Positions 7,500 to 41,264 of a stretch of 44,066 nt of DNA are shown in pieces. The stretch lies in NCBI GenBank assembly GCA_029093145.1, contig GCA_029093145.1_4347.1. One strand, given 5' to 3'. This DNA comes from a phage. Numbering within the stretch: the stretch's first letter is position 1; every line of letters starts with the position of its first letter. Position numbers and translations under genes: made by a program. The notes below the pieces were generated by a model. That model made no database searches, was not told the origin of the DNA, and saw only the letters and a program-made list of their open reading frames with translations.

Positions 7500-7528
7500 A
7501 TAGTACCCTATTATATTGGGGTGTGCAA
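7500..7528 (-). promoter_or_regulatory. class B promoter TTGCAC-N17-TACTAT with embedded AATAG-N4-CTATT dyad
   Basis: On minus strand TTGCACACCCCAATATAATAGGGTACTATTCA; near-identical copies at 16744-16772, 40040-40068, 41236-41264. Confidence 0.5.
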
Positions 7529-7580
7529 ACTATTTATTTACGTATTCCAGTTATTCCACCGAATTGTAAATGTTGGAATA

Positions 7581-7596
7581 AACTATTCGAATAGTT
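7581..7596. promoter_or_regulatory. perfect 16-bp palindrome AACTATTCGAATAGTT
   Basis: Self-complementary; half-site ACTATTC matches the promoter-associated motif. Confidence 0.4.
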
Positions 7597-7800
7597 GACT
7601 TTTCACTAAAAATATGATAAGCTCCACCTGAGCTTGTGAAGTATGAACAAGCGACCGCGGCGCGGGCAGGTAACGGAGCGGGACGTAAGTCCTGAGTGTA
7701 GTTACGCTGACGCGTTCGGAAGGGCCATACTCTATTGCTTGTGTAAAAAGTAACTGGTTTACTGAGATTACGCCGTTTCTATGTTTAAATGATAAGGACT

Positions 7801-7830
7801 AGCGCCCCGCTTTATGGCGGGGCTTTACTT
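7801..7830 (+). terminator. terminator-like hairpin upstream of spanin genes
   Basis: AGCGCCCCGC-TTTATG-GCGGGGCT followed by TTACTT. Confidence 0.4.
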
Positions 7831-7848
7831 ATCGAGAAAGGGGGAAAC

Positions 7849-8235
7849 ATGAATCTTAAAGCAACTGTCGTAGCAGGAGCATGTTTCATCATCCTGGCTT
7901 ACGCACACGGCATCTACCAGTACCGCAGCGGCTGGAGCGAAGGCCGGGCGAATCTCGTTTCGCAGCAACAGCAGAAAGCGCAGGCTGAGTTAGCGAAGAA
8001 AACACAACGGCAGCAGCAGGACGAATCAAAGGCCGCAGCCGCTGGCAACGAAGGCAAGACGAAATCAGAGGTGATTACCCGTGAAGTCGTTAAGTACATT
8101 AAAACACCTGGCCGTAGCGTGTGCACTTTTGACCCTGAGCGCGTGCAGCTCAAGTCCCGCGCCGTCGCCAACGCCAATTCCATCCCCGGATACGACGATG
8201 ATGCAGCCGCCGTGCAAACTGGCGCAGCCAAGTAG
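7849..8235 (+). CDS. i-spanin (Rz-like)
   Basis: N-terminal TM segment VVAGACFIILAYAHGI then Q/A/K-rich coiled-coil-like region; SD GGGGGAA; an overlapping lipoprotein gene in +1 frame. Confidence 0.55.
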   Translation: MNLKATVVAGACFIILAYAHGIYQYRSGWSEGRANLVSQQQQKAQAELAKKTQRQQQDESKAAAAGNEGKTKSEVITREVVKYIKTPGRSVCTFDPERVQLKSRAVANANSIPGYDDDAAAVQTGAAK

Positions 8236-16692: not shown

Positions 16693-16743
16693 AACATAAC
16701 TCCTGATTTGAGATAACATCGTTGGTGTAAGTGAATAGTACGC

Positions 16744-16772
16744 TATTATATTGGGGAGTGCAAGTAGTGTGC
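16744..16772 (-). promoter_or_regulatory. class B promoter TTGCAC-N17-TACTAT driving the accessory operon
   Basis: Minus strand TTGCACTCCCCAATATAATAGCGTACTATTCAC; dyad AATAG-N4-CTATT at 16743-16756. Confidence 0.5.
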
Positions 16773-16870
16773 TAGAATAATTTTGCGCCTAGTGTCGCAC
16801 ACGAAAAGCGGGTGGTTCCCGTCTGGCGCATTTCCTTTAACCAGTAACCTCTTAACCAAAGGATTAAAGA

Positions 16871-36550: not shown

Positions 36551-36579
36551 ACTATAATAGCGAACTATTCACATGTCAA
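36551..36579 (-). promoter_or_regulatory. class A promoter TTGACA-N17-TATAGT with AATAG-N4-CTATT dyad
   Basis: Minus strand TTGACATGTGAATAGTTCGCTATTATAGT; dyad 36556-36569. Confidence 0.5.
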
Positions 36580-36643
36580 TGGGCTTTTCTAAAATAATTA
36601 ATATGGTACTATTCACATATCAACTGACTAAGGAGTAACTGAC

Positions 36644-36876: not shown

Positions 36877-39144
36877 CTATTCCAAATCCTCCTCTGTCAC
36901 TGTCAACATTTCATTCGGTTCGTATATTGTCTTTGGAATCTTGTTATCAGTTATTCTGGTGTTCAGCCTGTAACGACCTGGGATTATCTGATTGTTTTCG
37001 TCAGTACCCGGAACAAGATACCCGGCCTCAACCATTTTCTTAATCTTCCCGCGTTCTATGGCTTCTTTGGAGTTAAACGCCTTTGCGTTTGGGTCTGACT
37101 GTGCGAGCTTATTCGCCGCGGCGACTGTGATGCCTTCGTTGCCGTTGTAGGTTCCTTCCGCCAGTTCAAACGCCGCGAGTATCGTGGCCTCCGAACTGTT
37201 GACGGCGTTCTCTACGGTTTTACGTACATTTTCTTTACCTTCTTTCGTCAACCCTTCTTCCCGCTCTTTCTCCTCGTCAGTTTTGAACGGCTCGAAACCC
37301 CACGGCATCAACACAAGCGCCTTGTGTGGTTCAGGCAGGTCCAGGTTTACGATTGTGCCGTATTCCTCTGTGCTACCCAGGAACTCAACCGCTCGGTATT
37401 CTTTAGGTGGCGGCGCTTCACGGAACTGTACCGACTCCAGCACCATGCCAACCGTCTTCTGCTGAGGCCCGTGCTTGAATTTCGAGTGATATACGTTTAT
37501 CTGACGGTCGGTTGCACGTTCGATTGTCAGTTCCACATCAACACCCGCATACAGCGCCCCACTGCCGCGTGCTTTCTTTCCACCCTTCGGCGTATGGTGG
37601 ACAACGCCTACTGCGGCTTTAGTTGCATCGCGTACTTCTTTCAGAATGGCGATAACTTTACCCATGCCGATTGCTGTTGATGAACTGTTCTCGTCGAACT
37701 TATCAATCGTCAGTGCCAGGGTCTGGTTAAGGGTGTCGAACGCAACCATGCCAATTGGCTCGTCGCCAGCAGTTTCGCGCATTAACTTAATCAGGCTTTT
37801 AAGTTTGCCGACTTCGCCCATATCGATGACATGTACATAATCTTTACCTTCCTCGCCGTATTTAGCCGCGAGCGCATCAATACGTGTACGTGTGGCTGCC
37901 CCACCCTCGCCGTCGATATAGAAATGGTGACAACGCTGGGTGTCAGCCCCTGCAAACCGGTATCCGGCGGCGCTCAGGTACATCATCCCCAGCGTATAGA
38001 ATGATTTGTACGTGCCCGATCCTCCGACGATACCCCAGATACAATCCGACGGCATGTACCCCTCAACGACGAAATCAGCCTTTACCGGCTCCGGTAACTC
38101 GTCCTCCTCTGAGTCCTCGTCGTCTTCCAGGTCGTCGAGGCTGCATGAGACAGATTCACGCGCCCCCCAACCGATGGCCTCTGCGACTTCACTGAACGGC
38201 AGCCCGGTCGCATCGCACGCGTACTTCCACACCTCTTTCGGTGACAGGCCTTCTGTCGCCGTAATGTCTGTGTCGTGAATCATGGTTACGTTTGGCGCTT
38301 CATACCCCTCGCGCGGGAAGCACAGCAGGAAGTCGTCCGGGCGCGGTGTCGGGTCGCTGTAGTTTTCGGCATGTTCCGGTGTGGCTGGCATCTTAAGGCC
38401 GCGCGGCGTCATGACGCCGCCGTACTCAAACGCCAGTGCTTCAAACGCGTCTGTAAACGCGGTGCGCAGTTCTTCCGGTATCTGGTAATCCGATGCGCTG
38501 CTAACGTCAACGGCTGGGATGCCTTCCAGTAACTCGTTCGGGTCGATCAGGTCGTTGCGGCGCGACCAGATAACGGTAGCGCCGACCGGCGGCAGGTACA
38601 TCGGCTGCGACAGAGTGAACCCGCTGCGGTCCGCACCCATGCCTTTGAAGAAGTGCTCCAGCAACCCATGACGAACACGGATGATATCACCACCCTCAAC
38701 TGGGCGGGCCAGCGGCATGACGACGCGAAAGCGAGGCGACTCATCGGTATGTGATGCCGTGGTGTAGAGACACATCGCCCGGCAGCTGCGATTAACCAGG
38801 CGCACCGCTTCCTGGTACTCTTCCGGTGTTGCACTGTCGAAGTCCAGATACGCCAGCGACGATTTGCTCACAGACGCGTCACAGCGATAGAAGAAGCCTT
38901 TACGCGCTTGTTTAAAGCCACCGGTTTCCGGGTCTTTTACGGTGCTGTGTGTAGAATCGCACGCGGCCGTGATATAACCGGGCGCAGTCTTGGGGTTAAT
39001 CCCGTCACGAACGGCATCGAGCGGCTGGATTAACTCTTTCAGGTCGTCCAGTGTTGCCGTGTGTGCGGTTCTGACATTTATATCCTTTTTCCCCGCCCGC
39101 GCGTTGCGGCGTGACCACGAGTAGGATAAAATTACATCGGACAT
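36877..39144 (-). CDS. primase-helicase (AEP-type primase-polymerase domain fused to RecA-like ATPase)
   Basis: N-terminal YLDFD and TTASHTD motifs (AEP-like); central Walker A GGSGTYKS and Walker B GMVAFDTL. Confidence 0.6.
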   Translation of the reverse strand: MSDVILSYSWSRRNARAGKKDINVRTAHTATLDDLKELIQPLDAVRDGINPKTAPGYITAACDSTHSTVKDPETGGFKQARKGFFYRCDASVSKSSLAYLDFDSATPEEYQEAVRLVNRSCRAMCLYTTASHTDESPRFRVVMPLARPVEGGDIIRVRHGLLEHFFKGMGADRSGFTLSQPMYLPPVGATVIWSRRNDLIDPNELLEGIPAVDVSSASDYQIPEELRTAFTDAFEALAFEYGGVMTPRGLKMPATPEHAENYSDPTPRPDDFLLCFPREGYEAPNVTMIHDTDITATEGLSPKEVWKYACDATGLPFSEVAEAIGWGARESVSCSLDDLEDDEDSEEDELPEPVKADFVVEGYMPSDCIWGIVGGSGTYKSFYTLGMMYLSAAGYRFAGADTQRCHHFYIDGEGGAATRTRIDALAAKYGEEGKDYVHVIDMGEVGKLKSLIKLMRETAGDEPIGMVAFDTLNQTLALTIDKFDENSSSTAIGMGKVIAILKEVRDATKAAVGVVHHTPKGGKKARGSGALYAGVDVELTIERATDRQINVYHSKFKHGPQQKTVGMVLESVQFREAPPPKEYRAVEFLGSTEEYGTIVNLDLPEPHKALVLMPWGFEPFKTDEEKEREEGLTKEGKENVRKTVENAVNSSEATILAAFELAEGTYNGNEGITVAAANKLAQSDPNAKAFNSKEAIERGKIKKMVEAGYLVPGTDENNQIIPGRYRLNTRITDNKIPKTIYEPNEMLTVTEEDLE

Positions 39145-39202
39145 GTTGTATTTCCTTCAGCAAGTAATTTGGCCTCGGCGTTCACCGCGTCGGGGCTTTC
39201 TT

Positions 39203-39436
39203 TTATTCCAGGTCTTCTAAAGTAGCGGTCATTCCGCGAACTTCAGCAAAGGCACTATATTTCCCGCCAACATTTTTCACGACGCCAGATTTAACCAGCA
39301 CTTTTAACGACCCTTCAATAATGACGGAACTATAGTACTTAAAATAACTGCGGCGCAAGTCGATAACGCTGCACGACCCTTTTTTACGTGTTAATGAAAC
39401 GACTGCCGTAAATACGCGTGACTGGAACTCGGTCAT
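39203..39436 (-). CDS. hypothetical protein (77 aa)
   Basis: Overlaps HTH gene start by 4 nt; shares C-terminal LEDLE tail with two replication proteins. Confidence 0.45.
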   Translation of the reverse strand: MTEFQSRVFTAVVSLTRKKGSCSVIDLRRSYFKYYSSVIIEGSLKVLVKSGVVKNVGGKYSAFAEVRGMTATLEDLE

Positions 39437-39630
39437 TTTACATTCTCCTTAATCCACGCTTCCACTTTCTCCCGGTCAAACGTACCTGGCTGACGGCGGC
39501 CCATAATGCGGACACAACAATCCGGGAACTTCCCACTCTTTAACCAGTTATTCAGCGTGCGACGGGTAACCCCGATACGCTCAGCTACCTCATTCTGTGT
39601 CATCCTCAAGCCCCCATTATCAGTTAACAA
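39433..39630 (-). CDS. AlpA/excisionase-like HTH DNA-binding protein
   Basis: MTQNEVAERIGVTRRTLNNWLKSGKFP helix-turn-helix. Confidence 0.6.
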   Translation of the reverse strand: MLTDNGGLRMTQNEVAERIGVTRRTLNNWLKSGKFPDCCVRIMGRRQPGTFDREKVEAWIKENVK

Positions 39631-39635
39631 AATCG

Positions 39636-39664
39636 AGTATACATTGTGAATAATGGGAAATCAA
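39636..39664 (-). promoter_or_regulatory. sigma70-like promoter TTGATT-N17-TATACT
   Basis: Minus strand TTGATTTCCCATTATTCACAATGTATACT upstream of HTH gene. Confidence 0.4.
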
Positions 39665-40039
39665 ACATAATCGCACCTATTGACATTATGAAAATCTTCG
39701 TTTAAGGTGCTTTTATATCTTAGTTACTTTGATTCTTGTTCACCTTGTAATACCCGCTTGAAACGCAGCGGCGCACCAGCGCCAGCGAAGTGTTAAGCGG
39801 CAGATTACTGAACATATGAATTATCGTAACTTTCCTTCCTAAGTATCTCAGGTTGCCCTGGGCAAGCTCTATTCTCATCGACGGCATATCTCTTAAGTAT
39901 CTGATAATTAAAAGTTTCTATAGTTGCCGTGAGCAAGGTAGAGAGTACTTCACTCCGCTGGGGTGGGCTAACGCCCACCCACTGCGTTGCGTACTCTTTT
40001 AAGAAACGAAAGAATCACAACGGCAACGTAACTATTCTC

Positions 40040-40068
40040 TTGCACACCCCAACATAATAGGTTACTAT
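40040..40068 (+). promoter_or_regulatory. class B promoter TTGCAC-N17-TACTAT
   Basis: TTGCACACCCCAACATAATAGGTTACTATTCA; dyad 40056-40069. Confidence 0.5.
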
Positions 40069-40102
40069 TCACTTATCGAAACGAGACATAAGGAATTTAG
40101 AA

Positions 40103-40321
40103 ATGAACAAAGCGACCGCAAGCGTAGTTTCCGCAATCAAACAAGTTTACGGCATCGATATTTCAGAGCGCGTAATTATCGGGAACAAACGCAACTTCTT
40201 TACGTTCGGCACCGACGGTATGGATGAAAATGATTTTGTTAACGTACAACGTTTCGCTAACGGTAAAGGACTTCGTAACGAGCCAGCGGGTTACAAGAAA
40301 TTTGCTATCTACTTTAAATAA
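40103..40321 (+). CDS. hypothetical protein (72 aa)
   Basis: SD AAGGAA; downstream of class B promoter. Confidence 0.5.
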   Translation: MNKATASVVSAIKQVYGIDISERVIIGNKRNFFTFGTDGMDENDFVNVQRFANGKGLRNEPAGYKKFAIYFK

Positions 40322-40442
40322 ACCCACGGCGCCGAATCATGGCGCCAGTGCCGACGACTCTGAGGGAGGTTGCCGTGAATAATTACCCGTTTATTTTAAT
40401 TGCCAGCGCCGTTTATGTGGCGCACGCGTTGTGGGGGTTGGT

Positions 40443-41228: not shown

Positions 41229-41235
41229 AATTTAC

Positions 41236-41264
41236 TTGCACACTAAGATAGAATAGGCTACTAT
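41236..41264 (+). promoter_or_regulatory. class B promoter TTGCAC-N17-TACTAT
   Basis: TTGCACACTAAGATAGAATAGGCTACTATTCA; dyad 41252-41265. Confidence 0.5.

Follow-up and report, generated by a model that had tools for sequence, protein, structure and literature searches.

A candidate promoter and structured RNA cassette in the gap beside the primase-helicase operon of a Kagunavirus genome

The DNA analysed here is a stretch of 44,066 nucleotides (contig GCA_029093145.1_4347.1), hereafter the window. BLAST of positions 39200-40400, and of the gap described below alone, identified it as the genome of a Kagunavirus, a siphovirus of the subfamily Guernseyvirinae. Our subject is the non-coding gap between the leftward operon that encodes its primase-helicase and its rightward early genes. 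An initial annotation had singled out positions 39665-40039 as a non-coding region that could be a replication origin or a structured RNA. This is the centre of a gap that spans 39604-40102 in its entirety and is bounded by two ATG codons, one at 39603 (a leftward gene for a helix-turn-helix (HTH) protein) and one at 40103 (a rightward 72-aa open reading frame (ORF)). From its sequence, the region is best read as a modular cassette of a promoter and a structured non-coding RNA, neither coding nor of the iteron type. It contains a conserved promoter-like site and a strand-specific, covarying non-coding structure, and the unit of promoter and RNA has undergone modular replacement and duplication. 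The features are:

36877-39144, minus strand: primase-helicase gene, 755 aa, with an AAA_25 (RepA-like) domain
39433-39603, minus strand: HTH protein gene, 56 aa (ORF and translation); first gene of the leftward operon, followed by the genes for a 77-aa protein and the 755-aa primase-helicase
39664-39636, minus strand: leftward promoter-like site TTGATT-17-TATACT (consensus scan; same site in relative L019), putative
39680-39708, plus strand: rightward sigma-70-like promoter TTGACA (39680-85)-17-TAAGGT (39703-08) (alignment reading and spacing check), putative
39722-39831, plus strand: long irregular hairpin, 5' module A1; minimum free energy -44.8 kcal/mol, z -6.58
39754-39800, plus strand: hypervariable upper part of this hairpin, helix P5 (39754-64 with 39790-800) and apex GGCGC-ACCA-GCGCC; five variants
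39832-39912, plus strand: conserved, mostly unpaired core, near-invariant in A1-bearing Kagunavirus and Jerseyvirus with point changes in some
39913-40009, plus strand: replaceable 3' module, allele B1, containing a 60-nt hairpin at 39940-39999
40012-40035, plus strand: conserved block GAATCACAACGGCAACGTAACTAT between the 3' module and the class-B promoter, common to B1 and B2 and to both genera
40039-40068, plus strand: 'class B' promoter CTTGCACACCCCAACATAATAGGTTACTAT, -35 TTGCAC (40040-45) and -10 TACTAT (40063-68), upstream of the ORF at 40103-40321, putative
40103-40321, plus strand: first rightward ORF, 72 aa

The gap and its promoters

Relatives of the gap were found in 448 phage records, at 78-96% identity in E. 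coli Kagunavirus and 66-71% in Salmonella Jerseyvirus. Those that are annotated keep the same order: a leftward operon of the 56-aa HTH protein, the 77-aa protein and the primase-helicase, then the gap, gene-free over ~460-690 bp, then rightward small early genes. The 56-aa protein matches the HTH_17/AlpA-excisionase-like family (Pfam PF12728, E 3.7e-8; PHROG 66). The one Kagunavirus RNA-seq paper in the literature searched, which gives gene-level counts only, classes its gene as early. In two IMG/VR contigs (L023 and L026), ~140 bp of extra DNA ending in a leftward start codon separates the HTH gene from the conserved gap, which is thus not invariably adjacent to that gene.

When ORFs of at least 30 aa were compared among relatives, none in the gap was conserved by frame or by position. 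They shift in both from one relative to another, and of the five Salmonella-phage versions examined four have none, in agreement with the initial annotation, which had seen no credible ORF here. The AT-rich part that it described is also borne out, with a G+C content of 0.36 at 39665-39770 compared with 0.46 at 39771-40039 and 0.51 for the whole window. All of the sequence features that it listed are present, with coordinates 1-2 nt off. What it missed were a plus-strand promoter within the AT-rich part, the 110-nt hairpin, the mosaic alleles and a paralogous locus at 7.6 kb.

Two back-to-back promoters, the leftward site at 39664-39636 and the rightward site at 39680-39708, explain the AT-rich stretch. 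An alignment of 27 relatives shows no variation in the rightward -35 hexamer (TTGACA) across Kagunavirus and Jerseyvirus; the -10 hexamer is TAAGGT, or TAAGTT in Jerseyvirus. The scan tool did not list this site, as its -10 hexamer matches the consensus at just 3 of 6 positions, and we infer its activity from consensus and conservation only. The predicted start of the plus-strand RNA is at about 39715-39717. In other Kagunaviruses the 5' module of the window (A1) is replaced by versions that cannot be aligned with it (A2, A3 and A4). These non-homologous alleles nevertheless keep a plus-strand promoter at the equivalent position: TTGACT-17-TAAGCT, TTGACA-16-TAAAAT and TTGAAA-18-TATAAT.

The flanking promoters named in the initial annotation, a leftward one for replication and a rightward one of class B, are both plausible; the first is the scan match at 39664-39636, and the second has three related copies elsewhere. 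The four class-B sites of the window (7500-7529 and 16735-16764 on the minus strand; 40039-40068 and 41235-41264 on the plus strand) compare with none in shuffled sequences. A shared homologous block upstream of the remaining class-B promoters was looked for and none was found. The family also has a conserved spacer between its -35 and -10 hexamers (CTTGCACNCCCCAAYATAATAGNNTACTAT), which suggests that a phage or host factor may bind there.

A covarying hairpin, an unpaired core and a replaceable 3' module

Compared with shuffled sequences, the DNA downstream of the rightward promoter is predicted to fold strongly and to do so in a strand-dependent manner. The z-score of 39700-40060 is -5.95 on the plus strand and -3.5 on the minus strand; that of 39718-39835 is -6.6 on the plus strand; and that of the 110-nt hairpin itself (39722-39831) is -6.58 on the plus strand and -2.94 on the minus strand. 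The hairpin is built of helices P1 (AGTTAC/GTAACT), P2 and P3 (TTCA/TGAA), a 5' CCTT bulge, helices P4 (GTAAT/ATTAC) and P5, and the apex. Its lower helices and the CCUU bulge are fixed, while the upper part varies in sequence and stays paired. In a comparison with a clade-2 Kagunavirus, identity falls to 46% in the upper hairpin within flanks of 88-100%. All five variants of the upper part (W and V2-V5) are nonetheless predicted to adopt one architecture, each hairpin at -11 to -26 kcal/mol. Between W and V4, 8 of the 20 positions of the 10-bp helix P5 differ; three of the pairs carry compensating changes on both sides, and a mismatch or wobble is repaired at two more.

Covariation was assessed with RNAalifold and in an alignment of 26 distinct sequences to a covariance model. 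Both P2 (UA/AU, AU/GC and CG/UA) and P4 (GC/AU/UA and AU/GU/GC) show compensatory changes. In this alignment, which was fitted to the structural model, 55 cells are changed on both sides compared with 30.1 +/- 4.5 in shuffles (0 of 500 reached 55), and the covariation score is 0.161 compared with 0.098 in shuffles (0 of 500 reached it) and 0.049-0.088 with slid partners, a drop to about a third to a half. Two of the five covariation measures, the number of doubly changed pairs and the additional pair types, were no higher than in shuffles. Within P1-P4 there are 27 G-U/U-G cells compared with 4 A-C/C-A cells, which indicates that the pairing is selected on the plus strand. Such pairing would most simply act as RNA, and RNA is a simpler reading than a single-stranded DNA hairpin because a promoter lies immediately upstream. 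The structured-RNA half of the initial annotation's proposal is supported: the promoter points into the region, the folds are kept by compensatory changes, and the ratio of G-U to A-C cells and the z-scores, which cover the allele of the window and its closest relatives, single out the plus strand. A long-range pairing, of 39721-37 with 40010-34, was rejected; in Salmonella phages its 5' strand changes and its 3' strand is fixed, and the compensation is found at 39818-31 instead.

The hairpin is followed by the core (39832-39912). This consists, in order, of a C/U-rich run, TAAGTATCT at 39840-48, a small hairpin TTGCC-CTG-GGCAA at 39853-65 that is weak on its own (z -0.9), CTCTATTCTCATC, and a second TAAGTATCT at 39894-902. 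The repeated motif of the initial annotation does exist, although its true sites are 39840-39848 and 39894-39902 and not 39838-47 and 39893-902. There is just one further exact copy of TAAGTATCT in the 44 kb, and both core copies are kept in nearly all relatives with the same allele, with point changes in a few. The hexamer TCTATT is common to five of six allele representatives (reached in 0 of 200 shuffles), and many Salmonella phages have TATATT.

The 3' module of the window, B1, contains a 60-nt hairpin (39940-39999; -32.6 kcal/mol, z -5.4). Its tip is the strong TAAC-loop hairpin that had been noticed initially, which is exact at 39961-80: GGGTGGGC (39961-68)-TAAC-GCCCACCC (39973-80), a perfect 8 bp at -18.1 kcal/mol (z -3.8). 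A discrete transcript ending at the GGGTGGGC hairpin had been envisaged, and this allele makes it doubtful: the U run is paired within the stem, so that B1 is not terminator-like, and the scan called no terminator at 39940-40003, where a G+C-rich stem-loop followed by a U tract was not found. B1 is one of three non-homologous 3' alleles (B1, B2 and B3), and all of them have a G+C-rich hairpin in the equivalent place. Most relatives carry B2, and SETP3-like phages carry B3. B2 (GGGCAGGC-loop-GCCTGCCC followed by TTTAGTT) was called terminator-like on the RNA-sense strand, and its loop-closing pair shows one exchange of C-G for U-A. A further pairing, of ACGGCAAC with GTTGCCGT at 39923-30, could form; covariation was not seen for it.

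One Jerseyvirus, Salmonella phage Kenya-K4 (L003), has tandem 3' modules ~300-580 nt into the gap: B2 with a class-B promoter, followed by a B3-like module with its own promoter. SETP3 has only the second of the two. The tandem arrangement appears to reflect recombination between the similar sequences AAGTATCTGA and ACTTATCGAA.

Alleles, paralogous loci and the question of an origin

Four A alleles and three B alleles occur in the gap between conserved anchors. Against the clade-2 Kagunavirus, the B module is 38-50% identical within the same well-conserved flanks. A1-A4 are interchangeable before the same downstream genes and beside near-identical primases: primases 96-99% identical to that of the window adjoin A2 or A3, those that are 86-88% identical adjoin A1/B2, and those of Jerseyvirus, at 58% identity, adjoin A1/B2 or A1/B3. 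Since near-identical primases adjoin different alleles and primases of 58% identity adjoin the same one, the alleles are uncoupled from the replication proteins. In none of the three leftward proteins (HTH, 77-aa and primase) does any residue track the hairpin variants. The HTH protein is 89-98% identical beside A1 and 73-86% beside other alleles, so that its allele travels with the A allele. Yet the same A2 allele is found with two different leftward-promoter segments, and the association may therefore be mere linkage. The HTH protein is also 89-93% identical between Kagunavirus and Jerseyvirus, compared with just 58% for the adjoining primase-helicase; this contrast (39433-39603; loci L003-L047) marks either a sharp mosaic boundary or strong constraint.

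The A2 family is also present in the window, at a second position, and a third structured RNA lies further along:

7595-7833, plus strand: paralogous promoter and RNA locus, 'A2' family; 87.6% identical over 145 nt to the A2b allele
16782-16846, plus strand: Rfam int-alpA RNA (RF02996), 36.6 bits against a threshold of 35.8

The A2b allele occupies the primase-side gap in other Kagunaviruses, and its paralogue in the window is at 7595-7737. The locus comprises a promoter-like site TTGACT-17-TAAGCT (7595-7623), a short hairpin, a 66-nt hairpin and a terminator-like hairpin (7804-7823, followed by TTTACTTATC) that lies 25 nt before the start codon of the spanin genes. In the 66-nt hairpin, each of two pairs occurs as three Watson-Crick types, and a further two, both G-U, do not vary. 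Downstream are the Rz/Rz1 spanin genes (ATG at 7849) and then head genes. Between the RNA and the spanin genes the scan called no promoter; by eye there is a weak candidate, TTTACT-16-TATGTT. Across 179 Kagunavirus and Jerseyvirus genomes the locus keeps 94-99% identity. As a whole (7530-7850, plus strand) it sits between a leftward class-B promoter and the Rz/Rz1 genes. The CCCCGC/GCGGGG stem of its terminator hairpin (7803-7826) recurs in the A3 allele (L012, L009 and L046). Presumably the same hexamers also form the stem of the E. coli/Salmonella type I-E CRISPR repeat, whose flanks differ.

The int-alpA RNA directly follows a promoter-like site (TTGGGG-16-TAGAAT) that itself overlaps a leftward class-B promoter. 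It precedes rightward ORFs that are probable tail genes, including a 779-aa probable tape-measure protein. With the gap RNA and the 7.6-kb RNA, three rightward gene blocks each start with a promoter-proximal structured RNA. The likeness between the gap RNA and int-alpA lies in this arrangement: both are promoter-proximal structured RNAs in a divergent-promoter gap at the head of a rightward operon of the same genome. They differ in that int-alpA is 65-71 nt long with a three-helix design, to which the gap RNA has no sequence or model similarity.

These data bear on the other half of the initial proposal, that the region is a replication origin or part of one. An origin would have its unwinding element in the AT-rich stretch, with the hairpins or the 9-mers serving as DNA sites for the primase-helicase or for an accessory protein, and transcription from the divergent promoters might activate or prime initiation. 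The position beside the primase-helicase operon, the low G+C content at 39665-39770 and a cumulative GC-skew minimum at ~40 kb all fit, as does the RepA-like AAA_25 domain of the primase-helicase. IncQ origins, which are served by RepA-like helicases, contain hairpin priming signals, and single-stranded DNA hairpins would also show covariation. In their AT-rich stretch, their hairpins and their RepA-like neighbour, iteron/IncQ-type origins thus resemble the gap. Unlike them, the gap has no iterons, no covariation with the replication proteins and a pairing that is specific to the transcribed strand.

Other observations weaken the case for an origin further. A search for iterons or tandem repeats, in the gap and throughout the window, found no array; there are no three or more phased repeats, only two 9-mers 54 bp apart (12-mers at 92% identity), and these are missing from A2-A4. 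A P4-type iteron, TGTTCACC, was considered and rejected, being a single copy (39737-44) that is not conserved in Jerseyvirus, which has TGTTTCACC. An initiator would be expected to vary with its sites, but the primases that are 96-99% identical adjoin A1, A2 or A3, the 58%-identical ones adjoin the same A1/B2, and the three leftward proteins do not follow the hairpin variants. The back-to-back promoters explain the AT-rich stretch, the GC-skew switch coincides with the switch in gene orientation and hence is not diagnostic, and the module at 7.6 kb is distant from replication genes. Position apart, the origin half of the proposal gains no support, and we consider an origin the least probable of the explanations weighed here. 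It would be least unlikely at the promoter region and at the shared block at 40012-35.

The mosaicism itself could be explained at the level of DNA. The region would then be regulatory or recombinogenic, with operators for the HTH protein or for an early regulator and an anchor for exchange, and the folds would be by-products. The promoter-early stem-loop (PeSL) cassettes of T4-type phages, which combine sigma-70 promoters with stem-loop terminators and mediate shuffling (Arbiol et al. 2010, PMC2839356), offer a precedent. The gap shares with PeSLs a small sigma-70-like promoter plus stem-loop, an early, plastic part of a virulent phage genome, occurrence at more than one locus, and short conserved borders across which modules swap. 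The anchors that flank the non-homologous inserts are AAGTNNCTGA at the A/B junction and GAATCACAACGGCAACGTAACTAT with the class-B promoter at the other end, and the same promoter and RNA unit stands at two genome positions. The tandem 3' modules of Kenya-K4 and the joint travel of HTH and A alleles fit as well. PeSLs are short, near-identical repeats whose stem-loop is a terminator, whereas the element here is a ~290-nt elaborate, covarying RNA whose alleles are not mutual repeats; the gap thus behaves as a PeSL-like mobile cassette, in that A2 is at two loci and A and B alleles alternate between anchors, but differs in size and in its selected RNA structure. Compensatory changes and the excess of G-U pairs imply selection on the pairing of one strand, which neither operators nor anchors explain. 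In addition, the two variable residues of the HTH protein do not track the hairpin variants, and the two promoter-region variants found with the same A2 show that the HTH/leftward-promoter segment is separable from the A module. A DNA-level cassette explains the mosaicism and not the covariation, and as a full account we find it decidedly unlikely.

A cis-acting leader or an independent RNA

Our preferred interpretation is that the cassette is a cis-acting 5' leader of the rightward early transcription unit, to which we give a probability of roughly 40%. The sigma-70-type promoter at 39680-39708 would fire rightward, with RNA starting at ~39716 and extending for ~290 bases. The RNA would comprise the 110-nt bulged hairpin, a single-stranded C/U-rich core with two copies of UAAGUAUCU and the small hairpin, and the G+C-rich 3' module. 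RNA polymerase that starts at 39716 would probably read on, given that B1 has no canonical terminator before the class-B promoter and the early genes. In relatives with B2, a fraction of transcripts would probably stop at the terminator to give a discrete ~270-nt RNA. The folded leader could alter the fate of the transcript through read-through of terminators or Rho-dependent sites, protection of the 5' end, or provision of a processing site. The same A2 unit occupies the primase-side gap in some phages and precedes the spanin and head genes here. As one kind of unit is found at the start of different operons, and as unrelated alleles can replace each other, a generic cis function on the transcript or on the polymerase is probable.

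Several observations weigh against a leader. Its promoter, with a weak -10 hexamer (3 of 6), escaped the promoter scan. The class-B promoter, which looks strong, intervenes between the RNA and the genes and would be superfluous to a simple leader. Covariation alone cannot separate an RNA hairpin from a single-stranded DNA hairpin, and many of the compensatory cells go back to a handful of changes, namely one split between Kagunavirus and Jerseyvirus and five apex variants. The commonest 3' allele, B2, bears a good intrinsic terminator, which suits a discrete small RNA (sRNA) at least equally. Finally, the upper hairpin diverges rapidly (46% compared with 88-100% in its flanks), which would suit a specificity determinant better than a leader with a structural role alone.

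Much of this would be accommodated by an independent, trans-acting sRNA of ~270-290 nt that runs from the 39680-39708 promoter to the 3' hairpin module. Through its C/U-rich core or its apex loop it would pair with, or sequester, some RNA or protein of host or phage, and it might serve as a regulatory sRNA, a sponge or an anti-defence decoy. The layout would suit such an RNA: it has a promoter of its own, a structured domain at its 5' end and, before a G+C-rich 3' hairpin, an unpaired A/U-rich stretch; in the majority allele B2 this hairpin is a canonical intrinsic terminator on the RNA-sense strand. The genes downstream have a separate class-B promoter, and a fast-evolving apex in conserved flanks resembles a specificity determinant. 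Complementarity to the phage genome is not above chance, however, with four 11-mers compared with 5.8 expected and no 12-mer, and the C/U-rich core has no complement elsewhere in the phage. Neither the B1 of the window nor B3 has a terminator U tract. A2-A4 swap the entire 5' domain with neighbouring genes unchanged, which is hard to square with one trans target, and at the second locus the A2 unit stands directly before genes. We regard a trans-acting sRNA as the leading rival, possible but rather doubtful.

Returning to the cis-acting leader, the closest parallels are the lambdoid antitermination leaders, namely HK022 putL/putR RNA, the lambda nut sites and lambda PR'-6S RNA-tR'. The order predicted here is the same: a constitutive host-type promoter, a folded RNA at once, a terminator-like hairpin and a long operon. 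As in the lambda late operon, the 7.6-kb operon begins with lysis genes, and as in lambdoid leaders structure is conserved above sequence. A put/nut-type position, promoter-proximal and upstream of terminators, fits both at the gap and at 7.6 kb. There are also differences. In place of two stem-loops of ~35 nt each, the gap has a single 110-nt hairpin as its main element. Neither a boxA nor a boxB can be recognised; the closest candidate, GCTCTATT, fits 6 of 8 boxA positions and is itself imperfect and variable, its TCTATT being replaced by TATATT in many Salmonella phages. A boxA-like reading of it is at most a lead. The existence of several mutually unrelated alleles also sets the gap apart, as does the second promoter between RNA and genes at the primase-side locus.

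A second comparison is with the antisense control RNAs of plasmids and phages that have long bulged hairpins, such as CopA of R1, RNA I of ColE1 and the P4 CI RNA. The gap RNA adjoins a replication operon, has a long hairpin with bulges and, like these determinants of incompatibility or immunity, has an upper stem-loop that is hypervariable between close relatives. Unlike them it would be transcribed away from the replication genes, and no complementary target was found elsewhere in the genome. The scan, which may miss weak promoters, gave a sole minus-strand site, at 39664-39636 and so to the left of the RNA, and none conserved to the right from which an antisense target could arise.

A bolder version of the leader is that the RNAs heading rightward operons in Guernseyvirinae (at this locus, at 7.6 kb and perhaps int-alpA) are interchangeable, evolve fast and form a new, protein-independent cis class that would reprogram host RNA polymerase through put-like processive antitermination or an anti-Rho action; or else that the hypervariable upper hairpin is a specificity determinant in conflict, serving escape from a host sensor that detects phage RNA or RNA-based exclusion among related phages. 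We think this unlikely.

As to novelty, Rfam 15 at gathering threshold gave int-alpA (16782-16846) as the only match in the whole window. A permissive scan of 39500-40200 (E up to 10) returned ctRNA_p42d (16.3 bits, threshold 50; E 1.7) and PhrS (9.5 bits, threshold 37; E 7.7), both at chance level. A covariance model of the hairpin matches only Guernseyvirinae genomes and Guernseyvirinae-sized contigs (IMG/VR and metagenomes), and a search of 5,426 E. coli genomes gave no match. The literature that we searched describes no origin, transcript map or non-coding RNA for these phages. The gap RNA is a new family within a familiar kind, the promoter-proximal structured RNAs of phages; its behaviour as a multi-allelic cassette is unusual.

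Phages of the genera Kagunavirus and Jerseyvirus are widely isolated for therapy and biocontrol and have been proposed as a small synthetic-biology chassis. Their regulation is essentially unstudied, and every gene relies on host RNA polymerase. The analysis defines an element at the start of the early region, made up of a putative promoter, the covarying 110-nt hairpin, the conserved core and an exchangeable 3' module; a paralogue stands before lysis and head genes. Were the RNA to act on elongation or termination, it would explain how long operons are timed without a polymerase of the phage's own, and would provide a second natural class of example beside HK022 put. Were it to act in trans, it would be a candidate host-takeover or anti-defence factor. 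For annotators, ORFs should not be called in the gap. For genome engineers, the gap is best avoided as a neutral site for insertion or cutting, though many database records are cut there.

Several Guernseyvirinae genomes in GenBank do begin or finish in or beside the gap (e.g. dunkel, blauehaus and EM1), which probably reflects convention. A 44,086-bp E. coli 'plasmid' record (CP088689.1) that matches the region is probably a Kagunavirus genome. Lastly, at 36555-36579 and 36599-36623 on the plus strand there are tandem 25-nt copies, 84% identical, that resemble the -10 half of the class-B promoter (TAATAGNNNACTATTCACAT). They sit in the gap just past the 3' end of the primase-helicase gene, where relatives have an annotated gene for a Cro/DicA-like repressor.

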